Positions 22,223 to 34,419 of a DNA stretch of 64,000 bases are shown here, piece by piece (within the stretch, counting starts at the first letter, position 1; the number at the start of each line of letters is the position of its first letter). The position numbers and the translations under genes are program-made. The stretch lies in NCBI RefSeq assembly GCF_002831645.1, contig NZ_CP025117.1:563514-627513 (forward strand), written 5' to 3'. A model generated the notes under the pieces. That model ran no database searches and was not told where the DNA came from. It was given only the letters and a program-made list of their open reading frames with translations. This DNA is from Olleya sp. Bg11-27 (lineage in GTDB: Bacteria; Bacteroidota; Bacteroidia; Flavobacteriales; Flavobacteriaceae).

Positions 22223-23134
22223 ATGCTCGACGTTAAAAACCTTACCTTTTCTTATAATAAAACACCTGTTTTAAAAGATATTTATTTCACTGCTAATCAA
22301 GGTGAAAATGTTGCCATTATTGGCGAAAGTGGCTCAGGAAAAAGCACCTTGCTAAATCTTATTTTTGGCGAATCCGACTTAAATCAAGGCCAGATTTTCT
22401 GGAAAGACAACGAAATTTTAGGCCCTAAATACAATTTAGTTGTCGGTTACGAATTCATGAAATACGTCTCTCAAGAATTTGACTTGATGCCTTTTATAAC
22501 CGTTGAAGAAAATATAGGCAAACACCTGTCTAATTTTTTTCCAGAAGAAAAAAAAGAACGCACCGCAGAACTTCTAGAAGTCGTAGAGCTTACAGAGCTT
22601 GCTAAAACCAAAGTAAAAACTTTAAGTGGTGGACAAAAACAACGTGTAGCATTAGCTCGTGCGTTAGCAAAACAGCCCGAAATTATTTTATTGGACGAGC
22701 CTTTTAGTCATATTGACAACTTCCAAAAACAATCGCTTAGACGTAATGTGTTTAGATATTTAAAAGATAAAAACATTACATGTATCGTTGCAACCCACGA
22801 CAGAGAAGATGTTTTAGGTTTTGCAGACAGAATGATTGTTTTATATGACAACAAAATTGTTGTTAATGATAGCCCAGAAAATTTATTCAAAAATCCAGAA
22901 GCACCATTAATAGCTTCGTTTTTTGGTGAGTTTAATATAATTAACGCCTCGATAATTTATGCGCATCAATTAAAAATGGTATCACATTCTGAGCTTAAAG
23001 CGACTGTAATACATTCTTATTTTAAAGGACACTACTACTTAATTGAAGCTTTATTAGATGACGATATTGTGTTTTTTGAAAACAAAATTTTATTAGAAAA
23101 AAATCAAACCGTTTATCTTCAAAAACAACTATAG
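22223..23134 (+). CDS. ABC transporter ATP-binding protein (solo ATPase)
   Basis: Walker A GESGSGKST, signature LSGGQKQRVALARAL and Walker B ILLDEP. Start moved to the ATG after the upstream terminator; the track ORF starts at 22193, inside the hairpin. Confidence 0.8.
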   Translation: MLDVKNLTFSYNKTPVLKDIYFTANQGENVAIIGESGSGKSTLLNLIFGESDLNQGQIFWKDNEILGPKYNLVVGYEFMKYVSQEFDLMPFITVEENIGKHLSNFFPEEKKERTAELLEVVELTELAKTKVKTLSGGQKQRVALARALAKQPEIILLDEPFSHIDNFQKQSLRRNVFRYLKDKNITCIVATHDREDVLGFADRMIVLYDNKIVVNDSPENLFKNPEAPLIASFFGEFNIINASIIYAHQLKMVSHSELKATVIHSYFKGHYYLIEALLDDDIVFFENKILLEKNQTVYLQKQL

Positions 23135-24850
23135 ATCTTCACGTTCGGCATACTGCAATTCATTAGGTAATTCCACTGAAGAAAACTCCAAATGCAATAC
23201 ACGACGTCTTTTTTGCACCGTTGTTTGAGAAGAGGCATGCAATAATAAAGGTTTTATTAACTGCACACCGCCAGCAGCAACTTCACTGACAAAGGGAATT
23301 GAATTATTAGAAATAAGTTGTATTTCTTCATCATTTAAACGTTTATTGTGTGACCCCGGAATCACTTTTAAAGCCCCATTTTTAATTGTCGTATCATCCA
23401 AATGAATACGCATCGCGAAAGTGTTTTTAGAAATATTTTCAGGTGGACAAACACTAATGACTCCTTTTTTATTAGTCCATGACTTAAACCCCTCAATTTC
23501 TACTTTTTCAGAAACATTTATAGGTACATCTTGATGCCAGCTAACATACCAATTGTCCTTTGGTGATTTATCAAAATAAATAGCTTTAGTTAAAAACACG
23601 TTTTTACTGATTGAGTTAATCAGTTTCTTACAATTCTTATTAAATAAAATATCTTTTAATTCTGGCACCTTTTTTAAGACTTCACGCATTCCAAAAGTCT
23701 GCTCACCATGCGTTTTTATATAAGTATCCAACCTCGCTTTTAGTTTTCTAATATCTCTTTTTGAATACACGTGATTTAAAATTCCAAAACCTTTATACTC
23801 TAATCGTTTTGCAACGGTACGTAGATTCTTATCATTAATTTCTGTCTCGTAAGCATCCACAGCATCATACAAACGTTCTTTTATATTTCGCTTTAAACGT
23901 TCTGGAGCAATTACTTTTACGCCTTCGCCTAGACCTAAAATTTCTTTTTCGAGCTCAAAATTTAGCTGCACGTCCAAAGCTATTGTTACACCATAATTAT
24001 CACGACTAACTTCTCTCTGAGAATGATGAAAAGGTTTCGTTAACACATAAGGCGCGTGTCTATGATTAACGTACAGCAACACAGCATCAGGGTCTAAATG
24101 TGGACTTACAGAAACCCCAATAACATCCTTATAATATGTTTCGGAATTAAATGTTGCATCAAAGACAAAACTATTTTCACTTTTATTTAAGGCAAATATC
24201 CGGTCTAAAGCTAAATTCATTACCCCTTCATTTTTGTTTCGTTTACCTATAATAAACCAGCGGTTTCTAAATTCTTTTAGCAAATACGGATGAAACACAA
24301 AGGTGTTTTCTTGTCTAGCCTTAAAGGATTGGTAAGTAATATCTATCGCTTCTTTCTTCAAAATAAACTGATAGAGTTTATCTAAATATTTTAAACCTTT
24401 TAAGTTGTCATTTTTTTCGAAATCTATTAATGACTTCTCATGTGTTTTTTGAGTATACACATGGTCTTCTAGTTTTTGAACCATGCTACCCAATTCATCA
24501 AAATGAGAAAAACCTTGAAACTGTTTTAAAAAAGAAACCGCTTCCGACAACTTAGTTAAATCTTGATTAGAAATCGGACTATTTGTAATACTATACTCTT
24601 CAGTTTCATATTTATAATACTTCCTATTGTAAACTACAATTGGTGCATTATAACCCAATTTGTCGCTACGCATCATTTGCAAGTCCAATTGCACTGTACG
24701 TTTACTAACATCTACATCTTTACCTTCATAGTCATACAAGGCATCAGAAACCGCTTCAATTAAATCATTAAGCGTCCATTGCTTAAAATTGTTTTGAAGG
24801 CATTTATCTATGGTTTTGTAGCGGATTAATGCGTTTTTATTTACTGCCAT
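23129..24850 (-). CDS. WYL-domain transcriptional regulator (HTH-WYL-WCX) fused to C-terminal PhyH-like Fe(II)/2OG dioxygenase domain
   Basis: N-terminal HTH (VSKRTVQLDLQMM). WYL core ITYQSF...FHPYLLKEFRNRWFIIGK...LALDRI. WCX-like segment, then WHQD, ALKVIPGSH and LLLHASSQ facial-triad motifs of phytanoyl-CoA dioxygenase-type oxygenases. Confidence 0.6.
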   Translation of the reverse strand: MAVNKNALIRYKTIDKCLQNNFKQWTLNDLIEAVSDALYDYEGKDVDVSKRTVQLDLQMMRSDKLGYNAPIVVYNRKYYKYETEEYSITNSPISNQDLTKLSEAVSFLKQFQGFSHFDELGSMVQKLEDHVYTQKTHEKSLIDFEKNDNLKGLKYLDKLYQFILKKEAIDITYQSFKARQENTFVFHPYLLKEFRNRWFIIGKRNKNEGVMNLALDRIFALNKSENSFVFDATFNSETYYKDVIGVSVSPHLDPDAVLLYVNHRHAPYVLTKPFHHSQREVSRDNYGVTIALDVQLNFELEKEILGLGEGVKVIAPERLKRNIKERLYDAVDAYETEINDKNLRTVAKRLEYKGFGILNHVYSKRDIRKLKARLDTYIKTHGEQTFGMREVLKKVPELKDILFNKNCKKLINSISKNVFLTKAIYFDKSPKDNWYVSWHQDVPINVSEKVEIEGFKSWTNKKGVISVCPPENISKNTFAMRIHLDDTTIKNGALKVIPGSHNKRLNDEEIQLISNNSIPFVSEVAAGGVQLIKPLLLHASSQTTVQKRRRVLHLEFSSVELPNELQYAEREDL

Positions 24851-24942: not shown

Positions 24943-25461
24943 ATGGAAGCTTTAAAATTAAAAATATTCGACGTTTTAACTAAGAAAATAGCTGTTTCAG
25001 AATTTGAAAATTGGCTGTATGATTCAGAAGAAATTATAGAAAACATTGAGTTGAATACAATTTATTTTGATGCAATTTCAATTAACTACAAAGGTAAAAA
25101 CTGGAGTACAGATTTAAATAATATAGCCTTAAATTATTTAGGTGAAACCTATAACGAAATAATAGAAATAAATAAATTATGTTCAGCCATAATTGAGTCT
25201 GAGGCTTTTCCAGAAACTCATAATCTTTTAAGCGATTTACAAAGAAATTTTGATTTTGATAAAGACTACTCTGTATTATGGAAATTATATATTTTGAAAG
25301 ATTATTTTGATTTGGTATCCGAAGGTGTTTGCCAAATAGGCACATTTAAAAAAGAAGCAGACTATTATTCAAAAAAAGCCTTAGAAATAATTCTAAAAAA
25401 TGAAAAAATAAACGAAATCAAAACTAAATTAGAAATAATTTTAGAAGATTTTAAACCATAA
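24943..25461 (+). CDS. Hypothetical protein (first gene downstream of operator)
   Basis: 172 aa, no recognisable motif. Confidence 0.45.
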   Translation: MEALKLKIFDVLTKKIAVSEFENWLYDSEEIIENIELNTIYFDAISINYKGKNWSTDLNNIALNYLGETYNEIIEINKLCSAIIESEAFPETHNLLSDLQRNFDFDKDYSVLWKLYILKDYFDLVSEGVCQIGTFKKEADYYSKKALEIILKNEKINEIKTKLEIILEDFKP

Positions 25462-25737: not shown

Positions 25738-25778
25738 AAAACCCGAAGCAATTTAAAAACTGTTTCGGGTTTTTTATT
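25738..25778 (+). terminator. Rho-independent terminator (possibly ending a small transcript)
   Basis: aacccgaa...ttcgggtt hairpin plus T-run, ~280 bp downstream of the previous stop codon. Confidence 0.55.
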
Positions 25779-26153
25779 TCCAGTCCAACCAGTTAACATT
25801 TAATTTTATTACTAAAGAAAATAATGTTTTTTTTCTTTATGTAAAGAAGAAAAATAAAACATAACCTTAGTTATGGTTTCTTTTTATCCTGAAAGAGAAA
25901 GGAAAAAAGGGTGTTTTATAGTGATTAAATTAAGTATTAACTGGTGTAAAGCAAGCCTGCTAAAACATTACCCAAAACAGTAGTAAACACAACCAGAATT
26001 ACATTTTATCCGTAGTCGACGCGTTTCAGAATGTATTTCAAAAAAAACAAATTTAAAAATGAAATACACGTATTCAATTTAAGCACAGATTCCAAATTGG
26101 GAGTAATTACAGGAATCATTTAAAACAGACAAAACCAATAAAAAAAATGTCTA

Positions 26154-26843
26154 ATGAAACCAGTAAACATAAAAACAACGCGACAAAAAGAAGTGCGTCG
26201 TTTACAAAAGAGACAACAGGAAATTTGGAAACTTCAACGAGCGTTAGGTTATACAAAATTAGATAAACCTATACGTCACGGTTGGTACAAGGAAATTGTA
26301 ATGACTAATCGTATAGAAATCTATAGAAATAAGGATTTGATTTTAGAAATCTACGAAAAGCTTGAAAAAGCCTTTTGGGCGAAGACTAAAGAGAAAGCTG
26401 CCTTTAAATGGCAACACCAAACATCAATACATCTTATTTATAAAGATATTCCGACTCTAAGTAAACGGCAATTTAATAAGCTAAGTGATGGCGCAAAACA
26501 GTTATGTATTCCGTTTGAATATTATACGAGAAAACAGAAATTAAGAACTCGATTTTATACTAAAATTCCAAAAGGCTCTTATAAAATTAAATTTACAAGA
26601 GCATACATAACACATAGACAACGTATAGATCCTGAAATAATTAGCGAAACCGATTACATCGCTTCAAAGCTTAATAAAAAAGGATATTATAACATCGCAG
26701 AAGCTTCAAATCCTTGGAAAGATGACTGGAATGACTCTAGTTACAAACAAGAACAATTAAGAACAAAAAGAGGTCTGAATGAGCTAAAAAAATATGCTCT
26801 AGAAGATATCATTAAAGACACCATATTATGGGAAAGAAATTAA
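26154..26843 (+). CDS. Hypothetical highly basic protein, translationally coupled to rtcB
   Basis: 229 aa, Lys/Arg-rich (TRQKEVRRLQKRQQ...). Overlaps the rtcB start by 16 bp. No known domain recognised. Confidence 0.45.
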   Translation: MKPVNIKTTRQKEVRRLQKRQQEIWKLQRALGYTKLDKPIRHGWYKEIVMTNRIEIYRNKDLILEIYEKLEKAFWAKTKEKAAFKWQHQTSIHLIYKDIPTLSKRQFNKLSDGAKQLCIPFEYYTRKQKLRTRFYTKIPKGSYKIKFTRAYITHRQRIDPEIISETDYIASKLNKKGYYNIAEASNPWKDDWNDSSYKQEQLRTKRGLNELKKYALEDIIKDTILWERN

Positions 26844-28286: not shown

Positions 28287-28877
28287 ATGCCTCCATCCCT
28301 AACGCAAAAAAAACAGAAAACAATGGAACAAAATCATAACATAAAAAGATACGGAGAACAATGGCCAAGCTATAGAATAAATCAAGGTTTGGACATTTTA
28401 AATAAATTAAAAACATGGGTTGTAATTTCTGGAGGTTGGGCATGGCATTTTATGTCACCAGAAGATCATACAGAATATAAACATGCACACGACCATAAGG
28501 ATATAGACATTTTTGTAAACCCTAAAAATGTGGCAGAAGTAATGGTAATATTAACTAAAGACGGTTTTGAAAAAGTCTGGACAAGATACGACCACATGCC
28601 AAGTAATGAAAACTTTAGACGCTACGAGAAATTAGATTGGTTAGATAATGGGAAGCAAGTAAGAGTGACAATAGATTTTTTCGAATCTAGTACTGTTGAA
28701 ACTACTAAAGTAAACGGTTGGAATTTAGTAGAACCTAAAACCTTATTAAGTTATTACTCCAACATTCATTCTAGTGATAAATGCTGGGCAGTAAAAGCAG
28801 CACTGCAATTAATTGAAAAAGGAAAAAGCCCCATAGGCAGTGCTTTATTATCTAAAAATCCTTTAGAAAAAGTATAG
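28287..28877 (+). CDS. Lnu/ANT(2'')-like nucleotidyltransferase-fold protein (start may be Met at 28323)
   Basis: VISGGWAWHF...HKDIDIFV matches the hG[GS]...DhD minimal NTase signature. It resembles lincosamide nucleotidyltransferase LnuA (LDGGWGVDVL...HRDIDIDF). Confidence 0.5.
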   Translation: MPPSLTQKKQKTMEQNHNIKRYGEQWPSYRINQGLDILNKLKTWVVISGGWAWHFMSPEDHTEYKHAHDHKDIDIFVNPKNVAEVMVILTKDGFEKVWTRYDHMPSNENFRRYEKLDWLDNGKQVRVTIDFFESSTVETTKVNGWNLVEPKTLLSYYSNIHSSDKCWAVKAALQLIEKGKSPIGSALLSKNPLEKV

Positions 28878-28993: not shown

Positions 28994-29689
28994 ATGAAAA
29001 CTAAAATAATACAAATAACCTCAGGTCGAGGACCATCAGAATGCTGTTGGGTTGTGGCTCAAGTTCTAAAACATTTTTTAGAAGCTATAAAGCAAAATGG
29101 TATTGATTATAAAATATTACAAAGAGAAAAAGGCATTGAAAACATGACATTACAATCTGTCACTGTTCAATTAAAAGCAAAAACTCTAAATCAATTTTTA
29201 AGTCAATGGATTGGCACAATACAGTGGGTAGGTGTTTCAAAGTTCAGACCACAACACAAACGCAAAAATTGGTTTGTTGCTTTAAATGAAATAGAACAGA
29301 AACAACACTTTGAAATTAATGAAAACGATATTTCATATCAAGCCACAAGAAGTTCTGGACCTGGAGGACAACATGTAAACAAAGTAAGTTCGGCTATTAG
29401 AGCTATTCACGAACCAACTAAAACACAAGTATTAGTCATGGACAGTCGCTCGCAACATCAAAACAAAAAAATTGCTAAAACACGTTTACAAGAAAAAGTT
29501 ACAGAAATACAATTGCAAAGACTAAAGTCTAGCATTAAAAATCAATGGGAGAACCACTTAAACATAGAACGTGGTAATCCAATACAAGTTTTTAAAGGAT
29601 TCGATTTTAAAAAAAACACAATTGTAAAAACGTATAAAAAACAAGGTAATACATTAAAAAATGAATTGCGAGAACAATTAAACAACTAA
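28994..29689 (+). CDS. prfH: Peptide chain release factor H
   Basis: Matches E. coli PrfH: SGRGPSECC, GTIQW, RKNWF, RSSGPGGQHVNK (GGQ), SRSQHQNK and IERGNP. The short 231-aa form lacks the codon-recognition domain. Confidence 0.85.
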   Translation: MKTKIIQITSGRGPSECCWVVAQVLKHFLEAIKQNGIDYKILQREKGIENMTLQSVTVQLKAKTLNQFLSQWIGTIQWVGVSKFRPQHKRKNWFVALNEIEQKQHFEINENDISYQATRSSGPGGQHVNKVSSAIRAIHEPTKTQVLVMDSRSQHQNKKIAKTRLQEKVTEIQLQRLKSSIKNQWENHLNIERGNPIQVFKGFDFKKNTIVKTYKKQGNTLKNELREQLNN

Positions 29690-29693
29690 AACA

Positions 29694-30245
29694 ATGGACA
29701 CAAACTTGTTAAACAACTACGTGCTTAAAGCCATAGATGCTTATCCATATGAGTTAGAAGAAACCGTAGAAAATTTAAATTATGCCTTGTCTTACGAAAG
29801 CAATAACGCTTACGCCTTATACTTAATGGCACGTTTGCAGGCAGAGCAATTTGGAGACTACGAAAAAGCCAAGCACTATTATGCCGAAGCTTTAGCTAAT
29901 AAAATGGATTTTCAGAGAGCATACCCAAAATACATACAAGTATTACTGGATAACGAAGACTTAGATGAAGCCAAAAAACTAATTGATTTTGCCTTAACCA
30001 TAAAAGGCATTGACAAAAGTGCTATTTGGGAGAAACAAGCTCAGATTTTTGAAATAAAACAAGAGTACAAAACCGCAATTAAAACACTAAAGAAAGCAAA
30101 ATTATTTGGATTTAACAATGACTTTATAAGCTATATAGATGCTGAGATTTCAAGAAATAAAAACAAAATGAAATCTAAACAGAAGCCATCCAAAAGTAAA
30201 GCGAAGAAAAAAAAGTGTAGAAAAAAGAAGAAAAAAACAAATTAA
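29694..30245 (+). CDS. TPR-like helical protein with poly-Lys C-terminal tail
   Basis: Starts 5 bp after the prfH stop. Helical repeats (AYALYLMARLQAEQFGDYEKAKHYYAEAL). C-terminus KSKQKPSKSKAKKKKCRKKKKK. Confidence 0.45.
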   Translation: MDTNLLNNYVLKAIDAYPYELEETVENLNYALSYESNNAYALYLMARLQAEQFGDYEKAKHYYAEALANKMDFQRAYPKYIQVLLDNEDLDEAKKLIDFALTIKGIDKSAIWEKQAQIFEIKQEYKTAIKTLKKAKLFGFNNDFISYIDAEISRNKNKMKSKQKPSKSKAKKKKCRKKKKKTN

Positions 30246-30381: not shown

Positions 30382-30675
30382 ATGGAACATTTAAACATTG
30401 ACACATTATTAAAAAAGAACGAAGACTTTTGGAAATCACTTGAAATACACTGCTTAGTTGAATGTTGTGGCATAGATGCTTTTGCTTTTGATAAAAAAAA
30501 CATTCAAAAAGAGAGTATAAACCATGACGTATCAGACATACAAAATAATTTGAAATTAATAATTAAACAAATTGACATCACAGAGTCAAAAAAAATATCC
30601 AGTGACTTATTCAATTTATATGAAAACAAAAAAGTTTTTAAAAATAGAATTAACGAGATTTTAAAAGTTCTTTAA
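30382..30675 (+). CDS. Hypothetical small protein
   Basis: 97 aa. Immediately upstream of the tRNA-like array and downstream of operator copy 2. Confidence 0.35.
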   Translation: MEHLNIDTLLKKNEDFWKSLEIHCLVECCGIDAFAFDKKNIQKESINHDVSDIQNNLKLIIKQIDITESKKISSDLFNLYENKKVFKNRINEILKVL

Positions 30676-30687
30676 AATATTAAAATT

Positions 30688-30772
30688 GGAAGTATTGAGC
30701 AATTGGTTGGCTCGCGAGACTATAACTCTCGTTTCTTAATTGAACATGTAGGTTCGAGTCCTACTACTTCCA
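30688..30772 (+). tRNA. tRNA-like gene, type-II (long variable arm) cloverleaf with non-canonical anticodon loop CUAUAAC (anticodon AUA)
   Basis: Acceptor ggaagta/tacttcc with G1-C72 and A73. D-arm gagc-aattggttg-gctc. Anticodon stem cgaga/tctcg. 16-nt variable arm. T-arm gtagg-ttcgagt-cctac. No encoded CCA. Tyr-like identity elements but A34 instead of G34. Confidence 0.5.
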
Positions 30773-30900
30773 CATCAAGCGTGTCTTGTTACGTGTTTCG
30801 GTATAGCACTATTGTATAAATCCTTGCGGTTTCGCATCAGGTTTTTATATCCAACTTGACTTGAAGGCTTTCGGTTATTTAGCCAAATAAATAATCTCCT

Positions 30901-31046
30901 CTATGTACGCAGGTTCGAATCCTGCCTTCATTAATTTGAAGTAGCTAAGTCCGGTTAAGCAATAGAAACAATCGCAGGTTCGAATCCTGCCAAGATCAAA
31001 ATGATCTTGTGGTCGAGCGGTCAAAGACAATGGACTCACACTCCAT
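30901..31046 (+). ncRNA. Array of tRNA-derived fragments: two T-arm units plus a split 3'-half/5'-half tRNA-like unit
   Basis: T-arm gcagg-ttcgaat-cctgc at 30909-30925 and 30974-30990. The second is followed by caagatc-aaaat-gatcttg, an acceptor 3' strand directly joined to a complementary acceptor 5' strand. Then comes a type-II-like D-arm gtc-gagcggtcaaa-gac and an anticodon-like hairpin atgga-ctcacac-tccat. No downstream T-arm. Confidence 0.4.
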
Positions 31047-31450
31047 TATTTCACGAAGAAGGTCACTTATAAAAATCGACCACTAAGTGTGTCTCACTTA
31101 AAAAGGCAAAAAACAAAGTAAAGGCGAACTCGCTAAAACAATTTGTTGTTGCAGCAGTCCGGAAAATACCTTGAAATACAAATGTATTTTTAGATGCCTT
31201 AGGTATTCTTTTAAAGACTCATTAGTTAAAATACAGTTTGAAAATCATTCAAATTACAATTAATTAATCTTCAATAAAACGCTACCTAAATCGCTTCAAA
31301 TCAATTGTCTTTCCGTAGTTAAAAGGATGGTTTGCTTTTGCTTTGTTTTAATAGAGAATAGCCATTTCAGCTTGACTGAAATTCTATTATAAATGATTAA
31401 TAGTTCTGAAATAAAAAACAAAAACAACAGAACATTAAAAACAAAATAAG

Positions 31451-32551
31451 ATGAAAAGAGTAAGAATTCATGCAGGAAAAGTCGGTTTAGTATTTAAAAA
31501 CGGTGATTACAAACGCGTCATCACGCAAGGATCACATTGGCTAACGTTTAATGAGCATGTAATAGATTATAGCTTAAACCTCGCCTTTAATACACCAACA
31601 GCATTGGAGGTTTTACTTAAAGATCAAACATTAGCAGCGATGTTACACGTAATCAATGTAGAAGACAATCAAATGGTATTAATGTATAGCAATAGCAACT
31701 TTAAAAACGTATTAACAGCAGGACGACATACCTTTTGGAAAGACTTAATCCACTATAAATTTACCACTGTAGATTTAAACGATATTATTATTCCAGAAAC
31801 AATAAACAAAGCCTTATACACCAACACTGTTTTACGTCCATACATCCGTACGTTTGAGGTTGCTGCACATGAAAAAGCAGTTTTAATTATTGATGATACA
31901 TTTGATAAAATTTTAGATCATGGCACATACCATTACTGGAGAAATAATCAAACTATTAAAATTGCGAAAGCAGATTTACGTCAATTACAATTAGAAGTTG
32001 GAGGTCAAGAGTTATTAACCAAAGACAAAGCCACAGTGCGCATTAATTTTTACGCACAATACAAAGTTACAGATATCGAAACTGCTTTATTGCGTAACAA
32101 AGATTACGAAAAACAATTGTACACCAACTTGCAATTAGCATTAAGGTCTTTTATTGGAGTCTACACTTTAGACGAGTTGTTAGACCAAAAAGACAACATT
32201 GCAAAAGCAGTAGTAGAAGATGTACAAACACAAGCACAAAAGTTAGGTGTAACCGTTTTACATGCAGGTTTAAGAGATGTGATTTTACCAGGAGACATGA
32301 AAGAAATCATGAATCAAGTATTAATCGCTCAGAAAAAAGCGCAAGCCAATGTAGTAACAAGACGAGAAGAAACCGCGTCTACACGTAGCTTGTTGAACAC
32401 TGCAAAATTAATGGAAGACAACAGCATGTTGTTTAAATTAAAAGAGATGGAATATGTAGAGAAAATTGCTGAAAAAATTGGCGAAATTACAGTGGCTGGA
32501 AACGGTAACGTAATCGAGCAATTAAAAGATATTTTTTCTGTAAATAAGTAA
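31451..32551 (+). CDS. SPFH/band-7 (stomatin/prohibitin/flotillin) domain protein
   Basis: SPFH-like core (QELLTKDKATVRINFYAQYKVTD...LRDVILPGDM...IAQKKAQANV) with a C-terminal coiled-coil. Length 366 aa. Confidence 0.75.
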   Translation: MKRVRIHAGKVGLVFKNGDYKRVITQGSHWLTFNEHVIDYSLNLAFNTPTALEVLLKDQTLAAMLHVINVEDNQMVLMYSNSNFKNVLTAGRHTFWKDLIHYKFTTVDLNDIIIPETINKALYTNTVLRPYIRTFEVAAHEKAVLIIDDTFDKILDHGTYHYWRNNQTIKIAKADLRQLQLEVGGQELLTKDKATVRINFYAQYKVTDIETALLRNKDYEKQLYTNLQLALRSFIGVYTLDELLDQKDNIAKAVVEDVQTQAQKLGVTVLHAGLRDVILPGDMKEIMNQVLIAQKKAQANVVTRREETASTRSLLNTAKLMEDNSMLFKLKEMEYVEKIAEKIGEITVAGNGNVIEQLKDIFSVNK

Positions 32552-32823: not shown

Positions 32824-32908
32824 GTTACTCCTGCAAGGTTTCCAAAACCTTGTAGGTTTAATAAACATAAAACCACACCTACAAGGTTTTAGAAATCTTG
32901 CAGGACAA
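32824..32908. repeat. Extended imperfect inverted repeat (long interrupted hairpin)
   Basis: tcctgcaagg-tttccaaaa-ccttgtagg ...22 nt... cctacaagg-ttttagaaat-cttgcagga. Both stem segments are exactly complementary. Confidence 0.45.

Positions 32909-32967: not shown

Positions 32968-34419
<1,452 letters not shown>

Follow-up and report, generated by a model that had tools for sequence, protein, structure and literature searches.

Between a DUF6331 gene and a gene for a slipin (Band-7) protein in the marine flavobacterium Olleya sp. Bg11-27 lies an interval that holds a tRNA gene followed directly by a row of tRNA-like pieces. We analyzed this interval within a window of 64,000 nucleotides (nt; contig NZ_CP025117.1, positions 563,514 to 627,513, forward strand), and all coordinates below are those of the window. 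A sequence-only reading had described here a cloverleaf with the anticodon AUA, twin T-arms, a hairpin of 7 base pairs (bp), a D-arm and an anticodon-like hairpin, and each of these is present where that reading had placed it. The interval very probably encodes two things, namely a tRNA-Tyr that belongs to an RNA-repair island and a conserved, structured, Band-7-associated RNA that mimics tRNA.

The predicted RNA and its permuted tRNA-like modules

The stretch between the tRNA and the slipin gene is free of open reading frames (ORFs) over 678 nt. Judging from its conservation, it is a multi-domain RNA of ~580 nt, spanning at least 30773–31349, directly upstream of slipin. This putative RNA begins one base past the discriminator of the tRNA, and in many related loci it likewise starts right after a tRNA (Tyr or Phe). 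The sequence-only reading covered about a third of it; the 5′ domain (30773–30897) and the 3′ half (31048–31349) lay outside the pieces described. The features of the interval, with the evidence for them, are as follows.

30688–30772, + strand: type-II tRNA-Tyr, anticodon AUA (loop CUAUAAC); ARAGORN, Rfam tRNA, orthologs
30773–30897, + strand: 5′ domain; nhmmer (41 loci), RNAalifold and pair counts, covariance model R1
30775–84/30854–64, + strand: helix P1 of the 5′ domain
30793–97/30805–09, + strand: helix P2 of the 5′ domain
30814–24/30839–50, + strand: helix P3 of the 5′ domain
30825–28/30833–36, + strand: helix P3b of the 5′ domain
30873–79/30890–96, + strand: helix P4 of the 5′ domain
30900–30966, + strand: tRNA-like module 1, permuted; covarying helices, tRNA tertiary nucleotides, YrlA alignment
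30900–04/30962–66, + strand: closing stem of module 1, TCTAT with ATAGA, covarying with TCTGT/ACAGA; then variable loop GTAC
30909–25, + strand: T-arm of module 1
30926–41, + strand: closed acceptor-like hairpin of module 1; hypervariable, always paired
30944–60, + strand: D-arm of module 1, preceded by U8-A9
30974–31028, + strand: tRNA-like module 2, permuted; covarying hairpin 2, Levitt pair
30974–90, + strand: T-arm of module 2
30991–31009, + strand: closed acceptor-like hairpin of module 2, 7 bp, caagatc-aaaat-gatcttg; perfect pairing
31012–28, + strand: D-arm of module 2, preceded by U8-G9
31030–31046, + strand: anticodon-arm-like hairpin ATGGA-CTCACAC-TCCAT (5 bp, 7-nt loop); family-wide ATGGA-N7-TCCAT, in close and distant loci
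31055–31081, + strand: H-type pseudoknot; covariation across loci, invariant among close relatives
31055–58/31066–69, + strand: pseudoknot stem 1, GAAG with CTTA; then A-rich linker TAAAAAT
31061–64/31078–81, + strand: pseudoknot stem 2, GGTC with GACC; the loop pairs with a segment past the A-run
31085–31099, + strand: hairpin AAGTG-TGTCT-CACTT; pairs kept through two-sided changes in a 10-sequence alignment
31110–31349, + strand: 3′ domain, with long-range closing helix 31110–31130/31329–31349; RNAalifold, 10 sequences
31357–31388, + strand: conserved long hairpin AATAG..ATTTCAG/CTGAAAT..CTATT; U-A to C-G in 3 of 10 sequences

The two T-arms are identical 17-mers (gcaggttcgaatcctgc at 30909–30925 and 30974–30990). 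Each module is a circular permutation of a tRNA, in which the T-arm comes first, a sealed acceptor-like hairpin second and the D-arm last, and each is predicted to fold into a tRNA core comprising the T-arm/D-arm elbow, U8, A14, G18–G19 and the Levitt pair. Because the acceptor end is sealed by a loop, neither module should be chargeable as transcribed. Most relatives have a complete anticodon arm after the D-arm of module 2; module 1 is without one. Farther 3′, the pseudoknot follows the family pattern GAAG-N7-CTTN-TAAAAA-N, the 3′ domain holds conserved blocks ACCTTGAAATAC and TTTCCGTAG, and the long hairpin at 31357–31388 may mark where the RNA ends on its 3′ side or belong to the leader of slipin.

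Related loci were collected through DUF6331 and then through slipin, yielding 80 loci from metagenomes, three that are isolates or isolate-like and a single near-identical contig. (DUF6331 was dropped as an anchor because it returned only 4 homologs and 1 genome locus, and slipin was used instead.) Across seven loci whose slipins are 77–86% identical, the interval from the tRNA to slipin has a mean column identity of 84%. Its most widely conserved piece, found by nhmmer in 41 loci, is the 125 nt right after the tRNA (30773–30897), and this 5′ domain is always trailed by T-loop motifs at about +140 and +207.

In a 40-sequence alignment RNAalifold placed 13 helices with 73 pairs, 56 of which have changes on both sides. 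Over these 40 loci 96.3% of paired cells were complementary, as against 38–44% when the partners were slid, the covariation score was 0.54 as against 0.08–0.12 on sliding, and none of 500 shuffles reached the observed value on any of five measures. The layout that the sequence-only reading had drawn from one sequence thus recurs far beyond chance, its 3′-before-5′ order is a permutation kept by compensatory changes, and its suggestion that the downstream pieces are tRNA mimics of the Y-RNA-like (YrlA) type holds. Hairpins 1 and 2 stay paired in 98.5% and 89.9% of cells, respectively, despite many replacements of their sequence; all seven pairs of hairpin 2 change on both sides, and every helix of module 1 has pairs with two-sided changes. 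The nucleotides U8, A14, G18–G19, T54-T55-C56 and A58 are invariant or nearly so in both modules, as is C48 in module 1. The Levitt 15–48 pair of module 2 covaries (G15-C48 in 22 loci, A15-U48 in 15, 2 exceptions), its partners being the base just 5′ of T-arm 2 (position 48) and position 15 of the downstream D-loop 2; D-loop 1 has G15 in 39 of 40 loci. Since the Levitt covariation reaches across the permuted junction, each T-arm works with the D-arm that follows it, which fixes the register of the modules. Thermodynamic folding (30773–31140 and 30880–31100) gave minimum-energy structures in which the two identical, palindromic T-arms pair with each other; covariation contradicts these structures and they were rejected.

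The pairing of the pseudoknot loop with the downstream segment covaries through more than 10 combinations across loci. A MAFFT alignment of all 40 loci was too gappy in the 3′ half to be folded, and the 10 close sequences were used there; among these, one pair of the long-range helix is A-U in six and G-C in four. Distant loci have different yet complementary strands for this helix (GAAAGTAGTT/AACTACTTTC).

The covariance model of the 5′ domain, R1, scores 122 bits in the window and matches the homologous position in 15 more distant loci (slipin ~56–60% identical) at 18–34 bits, in every case on the slipin strand and ~400–660 nt upstream of the slipin start. All 66 loci with at least 800 nt of upstream sequence carry T-loop motifs, and none is without all three signature elements. 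Some of the distant loci have a single module only, so module 2 is accessory. Two loci bear on what the RNA is coupled to: in L002 DUF6331, tRNA-Tyr and the second RtcB of the island, RtcB-2, are present while slipin and the RNA are both absent, and in L084 the RNA still stands in front of slipin even though DUF6331 is now on the downstream side of that gene. These contexts indicate that the RNA is tied to slipin and not to the tRNA or RtcB. A blastn search of plasmid and phage records returned no match to the RNA, and an origin in a mobile element was rejected; matches of the 17-mer core on four viral contigs are attributable to chance.

Strain differences in the tRNA-Tyr and in module 2

In the 64-kilobase (kb) window ARAGORN called one tRNA (30688–30773, Tyr, anticodon ATA), and the only RNA match at gathering level was that of the Rfam tRNA model to the cloverleaf (52.4 bits; gathering score 29). 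The gene has the canonical shape of a tRNA-Tyr, with a type-II cloverleaf, a long variable arm, G1-C72 and A73, although in place of the canonical GUA anticodon it has AUA (CTATAAC in the DNA of the loop). GUA is found in the near-identical contig L087 and in all 18 other credible ARAGORN Tyr calls in related loci. The slipin of L087 is 99% identical; over 1.1 kb the contig matches the window at 97% identity, and the single base by which the two tRNAs differ is position 34, a G in L087 (CTGTAAC). Among the orthologous Tyr tRNAs, compensating changes are seen in the acceptor and anticodon stems. By these comparisons the window tRNA is an ortholog of the Tyr genes in related islands, and, since L087 and all credible relatives carry GUA, A34 is a single G-to-A substitution private to the strain, or else an error of sequencing. 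From how far the window and L087 diverge overall, about one substitution per tRNA length would be predicted, so there is no sign of selection on A34. Tyrosyl-tRNA synthetase tolerates changes at position 34, as amber suppressors attest, and a tRNA with A34 would be out of reach of nucleases, and of the Tgt enzyme, that depend on G34-U35. For A34 an adaptive meaning is possible but unsupported, and A34 as a designed feature, at which the sequence-only reading had hinted by calling it provocative, is not borne out here.

Most loci have tRNA genes upstream of slipin, from 1 to 20 per locus. Flanks of 3 kb or more are available for 48 loci, and 32 of these carry tRNA genes. The commonest isotype of these arrays is Tyr, which occurs in 20 loci and is also the one most often found closest to slipin, as the final tRNA of the array in 12 loci; there is no Val, and a single occurrence each of Gly, Ala and Thr. 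The window tRNA-Tyr is the surviving (last) or only member of such an array. In cyanobacteria, long tRNA arrays are linked to and co-regulated with rtcB (PMC8421152); the likeness lies in the arrays of up to 20 tRNA genes in the RtcB islands of the relatives, whereas the window keeps one tRNA, and PMC8421152 reports neither a Band-7 gene nor a permuted tRNA-like RNA.

A second apparent Tyr-ATA tRNA, called by ARAGORN at L045:4976–5048 (73 nt), was rejected as a homolog, having a poor acceptor stem and no proper GG in its D-loop; it is probably a degenerate tRNA-like element. Other odd anticodons in these islands include UUA in the module-2 loops of L007 and L009, an 86-nt "tRNA-Stop (tta)" called by ARAGORN just downstream of slipin (L063:7151–7236) and tRNA-Ile(UAU) genes in the arrays of L060 and L074.

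Module 2 also differs between the window and L087. Amid sequence that is otherwise ~98–99% identical, the two diverge over ~30967–31029. There, T-arm 2 of the window has become identical to T-arm 1, unlike that of L087, hairpin 2 and D-arm 2 have been swapped for different, still self-complementary sequences that resemble the L020 and L031 alleles, and 25 nt with a Leu-type anticodon arm (CTGTA-TTTAGGT-TACAG) are deleted. The deletion is in register and leaves the ATGGA hairpin one base past D-arm 2, at the position of an anticodon arm, which is why the Rfam tRNA model aligns this hairpin as an anticodon arm (25 bits). In the family as a whole, the module-2 loops have U33 in 34 of 37 cases and a purine at position 37 in 35 of 37. 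The 37 seven-base loops present 16 different triplets on a few scaffold stems, the D-arm is of two types, and triplets that end in G carry G37, nearly all others carrying A37. As far as sequences can tell, module 2 behaves as a rapidly exchanged cassette.

Further variants were seen in three loci. L027, L028 and L037 have an extra anticodon-like arm (CCAGA-TTTCGGT-TCTGG) together with an insert between D-arm 1 and T-arm 2 (columns ~229–250 of alignment A3). In L028 and L037 the module-1 closing stem is without its upstream strand, and ARAGORN calls an 86-nt "tRNA-Arg(tcg)" across both modules.

The repair island around the RNA

The RNA and the tRNA-Tyr stand inside an island whose edges are an ABC transporter gene and a phosphopantetheinyl transferase gene. 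As the sequence-only reading had it, RtcB and PrfH adjoin the tRNA-like array; both lie upstream, and a second RtcB follows slipin.

23129–24850, – strand: WYL-WCX-PhyH protein, divergently oriented (Pfam); in the same place in L084 and L085
26828–28219, + strand: RtcB-1 (Pfam), of the upstream repair genes
28287–28877, + strand: nucleotidyltransferase-like ORF (weak Pfam match, 19 bits)
28994–29689, + strand: PrfH (NCBIfam TIGR03072, 217.9 bits; cut-off 166.65)
29694–30245, + strand: TPR protein (Pfam/NCBIfam)
30382–30675, + strand: DUF6331 (Pfam/NCBIfam)
31451–32551, + strand: slipin/SPFH (Band-7) protein, 366 aa (Pfam Band_7, 106.9 bits)
33016–34419, + strand: RtcB-2 RNA ligase (Pfam RtcB, 134.2 bits); after slipin in L084–L086

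Accretions of TPR and Pol-beta nucleotidyltransferase genes around a PrfH-RtcB core have been described before (PMC6514570). The upstream genes conform to this pattern, with a PrfH equivalog beside RtcB and both a TPR protein and a Pol-beta-type nucleotidyltransferase, the match for the last being weak (19 bits).

Slipin is without a transmembrane segment (maximum hydropathy 1.06). Its structural model has a predicted local distance difference test score (pLDDT) of 70–88 over residues 60–290 and a mean of 62.6, and it matches stomatin, prohibitin, HflK/C and flotillin, as well as major vault protein over longer stretches. Residues 1–56 were not assigned a fold, the model having a pLDDT below 50 there. 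As modeled, slipin would be a soluble protein with the SPFH fold of cage formers.

Several observations concern the other genes of the island. The fusion of WYL and WCX domains to a PhyH-type dioxygenase is unusual and is kept beside the island in two further Olleya-like loci (L084 and L085); its product is a candidate regulator of the island. Two island ORFs, 24943–25461 (172 aa) and 26154–26843 (229 aa), have no Pfam or NCBIfam match; the second overlaps the start of RtcB-1, with which it is likely to be co-translated. After the first comes a strong terminator-like hairpin with a T-run (25742–25779; CCCGAAGC...GTTTCGGGTTTTTT), which suggests that the repair operon starts between ~25780 and 26154. 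The 465-nt gap between slipin and RtcB-2 contains a long imperfect inverted repeat at 32828–32905 (CTCCTGCAAGGTTT...CCTTGTAGG / CCTACAAGG...CTTGCAGGA). DUF6331, whose protein in the window is 100% identical to that of Olleya sp. Bg11-27, has an invariant HC..ECCG cysteine motif; it is cut short in L087 (3961–4098) by a one-base change in a poly-A run, and in L084 it lies between slipin and RtcB-2, not upstream of the tRNA. At the same chromosomal site, the accessory genes differ among relatives (L085:11527–15079, L086:1913–6150, L001:6090–13922) and include two Metallophos phosphoesterases, an RNaseH-like protein, an Rnl2-type RNA ligase and two RlaP nucleotidyltransferases, as well as an RNase T-like exonuclease, DUF434 and PcfJ.

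Known relatives and possible roles of the RNA

The order of parts in the modules has counterparts elsewhere. In the permuted tRNA genes of Cyanidioschyzon merolae and in the two-piece tmRNA of alpha-proteobacteria, the T-arm and the 3′ acceptor strand are encoded before the 5′ acceptor strand and the D-arm, and these genes are processed to functional RNAs with free, chargeable ends. The layout in the window is the same, except that a short loop seals the acceptor and the identity of the anticodon is unconserved; a permissive Rfam scan found no ribozyme, bulge-helix-bulge or other processing signal of a permuted tRNA. In the vault particle, a soluble cage former of the SPFH fold, major vault protein, is joined by a small structured RNA, the vault RNA. 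Between the slipin model and major vault protein the match extends over 332–401 columns at 10–12% identity, and a vault-like cage that binds the RNA is in that respect no more than conceivable.

By its summarized description, the closest known thing is the b7a-tRNA, a predicted tRNA-resembling noncoding RNA beside a Band-7 gene and RtcB that was proposed as a cofactor of RNA ligation (Burroughs and Aravind 2016, as summarized in 10.1101/312249). Such an RNA beside a Band-7 gene neighboring RtcB is just what the window contains. The secondary summary would fit either the Tyr-type cloverleaf (30688–30772) or the permuted modules, and the interval has both, so that the tRNA-Tyr cloverleaf itself may be the b7a-tRNA. 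The ~580-nt multi-domain layout, the tandem permuted modules, the pseudoknot and the turnover of the cassette are not in that summary. In the literature searched, we found no mention of b7a-tRNA beyond 10.1101/312249 and no experimental validation of the Band-7-associated RNA predicted in 2016. For that predicted type of RNA, covariation now supports a concrete architecture, and coordinates are at hand in a marine flavobacterium that can be cultivated. The same secondary source notes that YrlA RNAs occur occasionally beside a Band-7 gene, with no experimental validation as of 2018 (Wang et al. 2018, 10.1101/312249).

YrlA RNAs are defined by a Ro60-binding helix with GNCGAAN0-1G, a T/acceptor-like/D domain and a position beside rsr, and those who defined them caution that dimeric tRNAs give false positives (PMC4201824). 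The window RNA resembles them in the succession of a T-arm, a closed acceptor-like stem-loop and a D-arm, shut by a stem, as well as in the tRNA tertiary nucleotides, the Levitt covariation and the location at an RtcB locus; it differs in its tandem modules, its extra 5′ and 3′ domains and its slipin partner. The Rfam model of YrlA (RF02553) aligns at module 1 with 27.9 bits, against a gathering score of 69, and in the cmscan alignment the outer stems are mismatched; two ordinary tRNAs that adjoin each other in L001 score 22.2 bits with the same model. The Ro-binding motif is absent from the window RNA and occurs in 4 of 40 loci at non-homologous positions. No TROVE/Ro protein was found among the window ORFs scanned (14374–39889) or among the called genes of L001, L002 and L084–L087. 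We therefore rejected membership in YrlA, on the score, the missing Ro motif and the missing rsr, the tRNA-like domain alone being shared. Thus, where the sequence-only reading had invoked the rsr-yrlA-rtcB precedent, the YrlA-type tRNA-like domain stands and the membership falls, the partner being Band-7/slipin; likewise, of the covariance models it had proposed to run, that for tRNA succeeds at the cloverleaf (52.4 bits) and that for YrlA does not. By analogy, the RNA may work like a YrlA Y RNA without being one. Mimicry of tRNA by circular permutation, in other words, occurs without Ro and in tandem copies.

The explanation that we favor, identity and role taken together, is somewhat likelier than not: in this interval an RtcB/PrfH/slipin repair island carries two linked RNA genes. 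As to mechanism, we advance somewhat more tentatively, at a confidence just short of even, that the RNA serves the slipin-RtcB repair module as a scaffold. The RNA would be cut from an operon transcript by tRNA 3′-end processing at its junction with the tRNA, giving ends that we infer. It would be the partner of an oligomeric, cytosolic slipin and would act as a Ro-less, Y-RNA-like platform whose tRNA-shaped modules dock tRNA-recognizing repair enzymes (RtcB-2, the nucleotidyltransferase) and/or occupy anticodon nucleases, while the array tRNAs would be replacements for damaged tRNAs. The fold relatives of slipin (stomatin, prohibitin, HflK/C, flotillin and major vault protein) all form rings or cages, which we count as support for a slipin oligomer. 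A mimic at the end of arrays of spare tRNAs would link spare parts, repair enzymes and a tRNA-shaped RNA cofactor.

Several points weigh against this scaffold. No terminator or Bacteroidota-type promoter was recognized between the RNA and slipin, and conservation runs up to the slipin start codon, with which a purely cis-acting leader is compatible. Confidence in the slipin model is only moderate, its mean pLDDT being 62.6, and an RNA-binding surface was not identified on it. Moreover, the window copy is atypical, with its cassette replaced, its anticodon arm deleted and a mismatch in pseudoknot stem 1, and it could be impaired in part.

A bolder extension of the scaffold, which we consider improbable, is that the ~580-nt RNA represents a class not described before and forms the RNA subunit of a vault-like slipin particle in the cytosol, in which the exchangeable cassette would be the bait or sentinel for anticodon nucleases, its cut ends (2′,3′-cyclic phosphate and 5′-OH) recruiting or activating RtcB-2. 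If true, this bait model would couple the detection of a ribotoxin attack to repair.

Of the alternatives to the scaffold, the one that survives best, while still rather unlikely, is that the RNA is a cis-acting sensor leader of slipin and rtcB2, in which a tRNA-directed factor (e.g., an anticodon nuclease) cuts or binds the modules and thereby switches on the repair genes or, in a variant, fragments with 2′,3′-cyclic phosphates are sensed by the WYL regulator. A leader would account for the shared strand, the steady distance to the slipin start (mostly ~690 nt), the conservation up to the start codon and the lack of a recognizable promoter or terminator between the RNA and slipin. (σ70-type promoter sites were not above chance, and no TAnnTTTG, the Bacteroidota-type promoter, was found on the + strand between 27410 and 31849; both results are uninformative for transcript ends.) The variable triplet that is held between U33 and the purine at position 37 also fits a sensor, and in Salmonella tRNA fragments regulate the rtc operon (PMC7790460). 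However, alternative, mutually exclusive structures at the ribosome-binding region were not found, the structure being one static set of helices with 96% pairing, and, ~100 nt ahead of the start codon, the 3′ domain ends in a long-range helix of its own that closes it, as would be expected of a discrete RNA.

Less probable as a full account, and compatible with the scaffold, is a decoy or sponge, that is, a set of sealed mimics that inhibit or bait tRNA-targeting toxins and in which the module-2 cassette tracks nuclease specificity. The 16 triplets presented on a shared scaffold stem, with a tRNA-like match of anticodon type to position 37, and the cassette swap between strains that are otherwise so similar speak for it, as does the makeup of the arrays, in which Tyr, Asp, Arg, Gln, Lys and Glu are overrepresented and Val, Gly and Ala are missing (Gly and Ala once each by count). 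A role as nuclease competitor has been proposed for YrlA (PMC7790460). Yet the hairpin loops vary too, and the variability of the triplet may reflect an absence of constraint; the universal module 1 is without an anticodon loop, several distant loci have a single module, and a decoy does not account for why the RNA is so firmly coupled to slipin or why it has large 5′ and 3′ domains.

It is very improbable that module 2 is a permuted or split tRNA gene from which a functional tRNA is made, with RNase P cutting in the hairpin-2 loop, CCA being added and RtcB joining positions 43 and 44. The 7-bp acceptor-like stem and the 5-bp T-stem do form a tRNA minihelix, the relatives have a full Leu-type D-arm and anticodon arm, RtcB is encoded next door, and a YrlA of M. 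smegmatis whose stem has 7 bp is a substrate of RNase P and acquires CCA (PMC4201824). Nonetheless, the permissive Rfam scan found no self-cleaving ribozyme or splicing motif, module 1 is without an anticodon arm, the window module 2 is without the Leu anticodon arm, and the anticodon identity is unconserved among orthologs. Nor does a plain tRNA-Leu with a downstream T-arm fit, as ARAGORN calls it in L020 and L031: five loci have a third T-arm, and the strand that comes next is unpaired with the 5′ acceptor strand in L033, L034 and L036 and pairs only weakly with it in L020 and L031, whereas hairpin 2 pairs in all five.

Finally, non-functional debris, that is, decayed copies of array tRNAs or the integration scars at tRNA genes that the sequence-only reading had also entertained, can be set aside as most improbable: real tRNA arrays do stand at the same place in relatives, the YrlA model does score 22 bits across two ordinary adjacent tRNAs and module 2 has suffered a deletion in the window strain, but no integrase or repeat-flanked element was seen near the interval, 36 of the 40 copies give no tRNA call with ARAGORN, which argues against recently decayed genes, the interval is about as conserved (84%) as the neighboring protein, and, where decay without conservation in relatives had been named as the outcome to look for, alignment shows strong compensatory evolution in every helix and invariant tertiary nucleotides across more than 40 loci.

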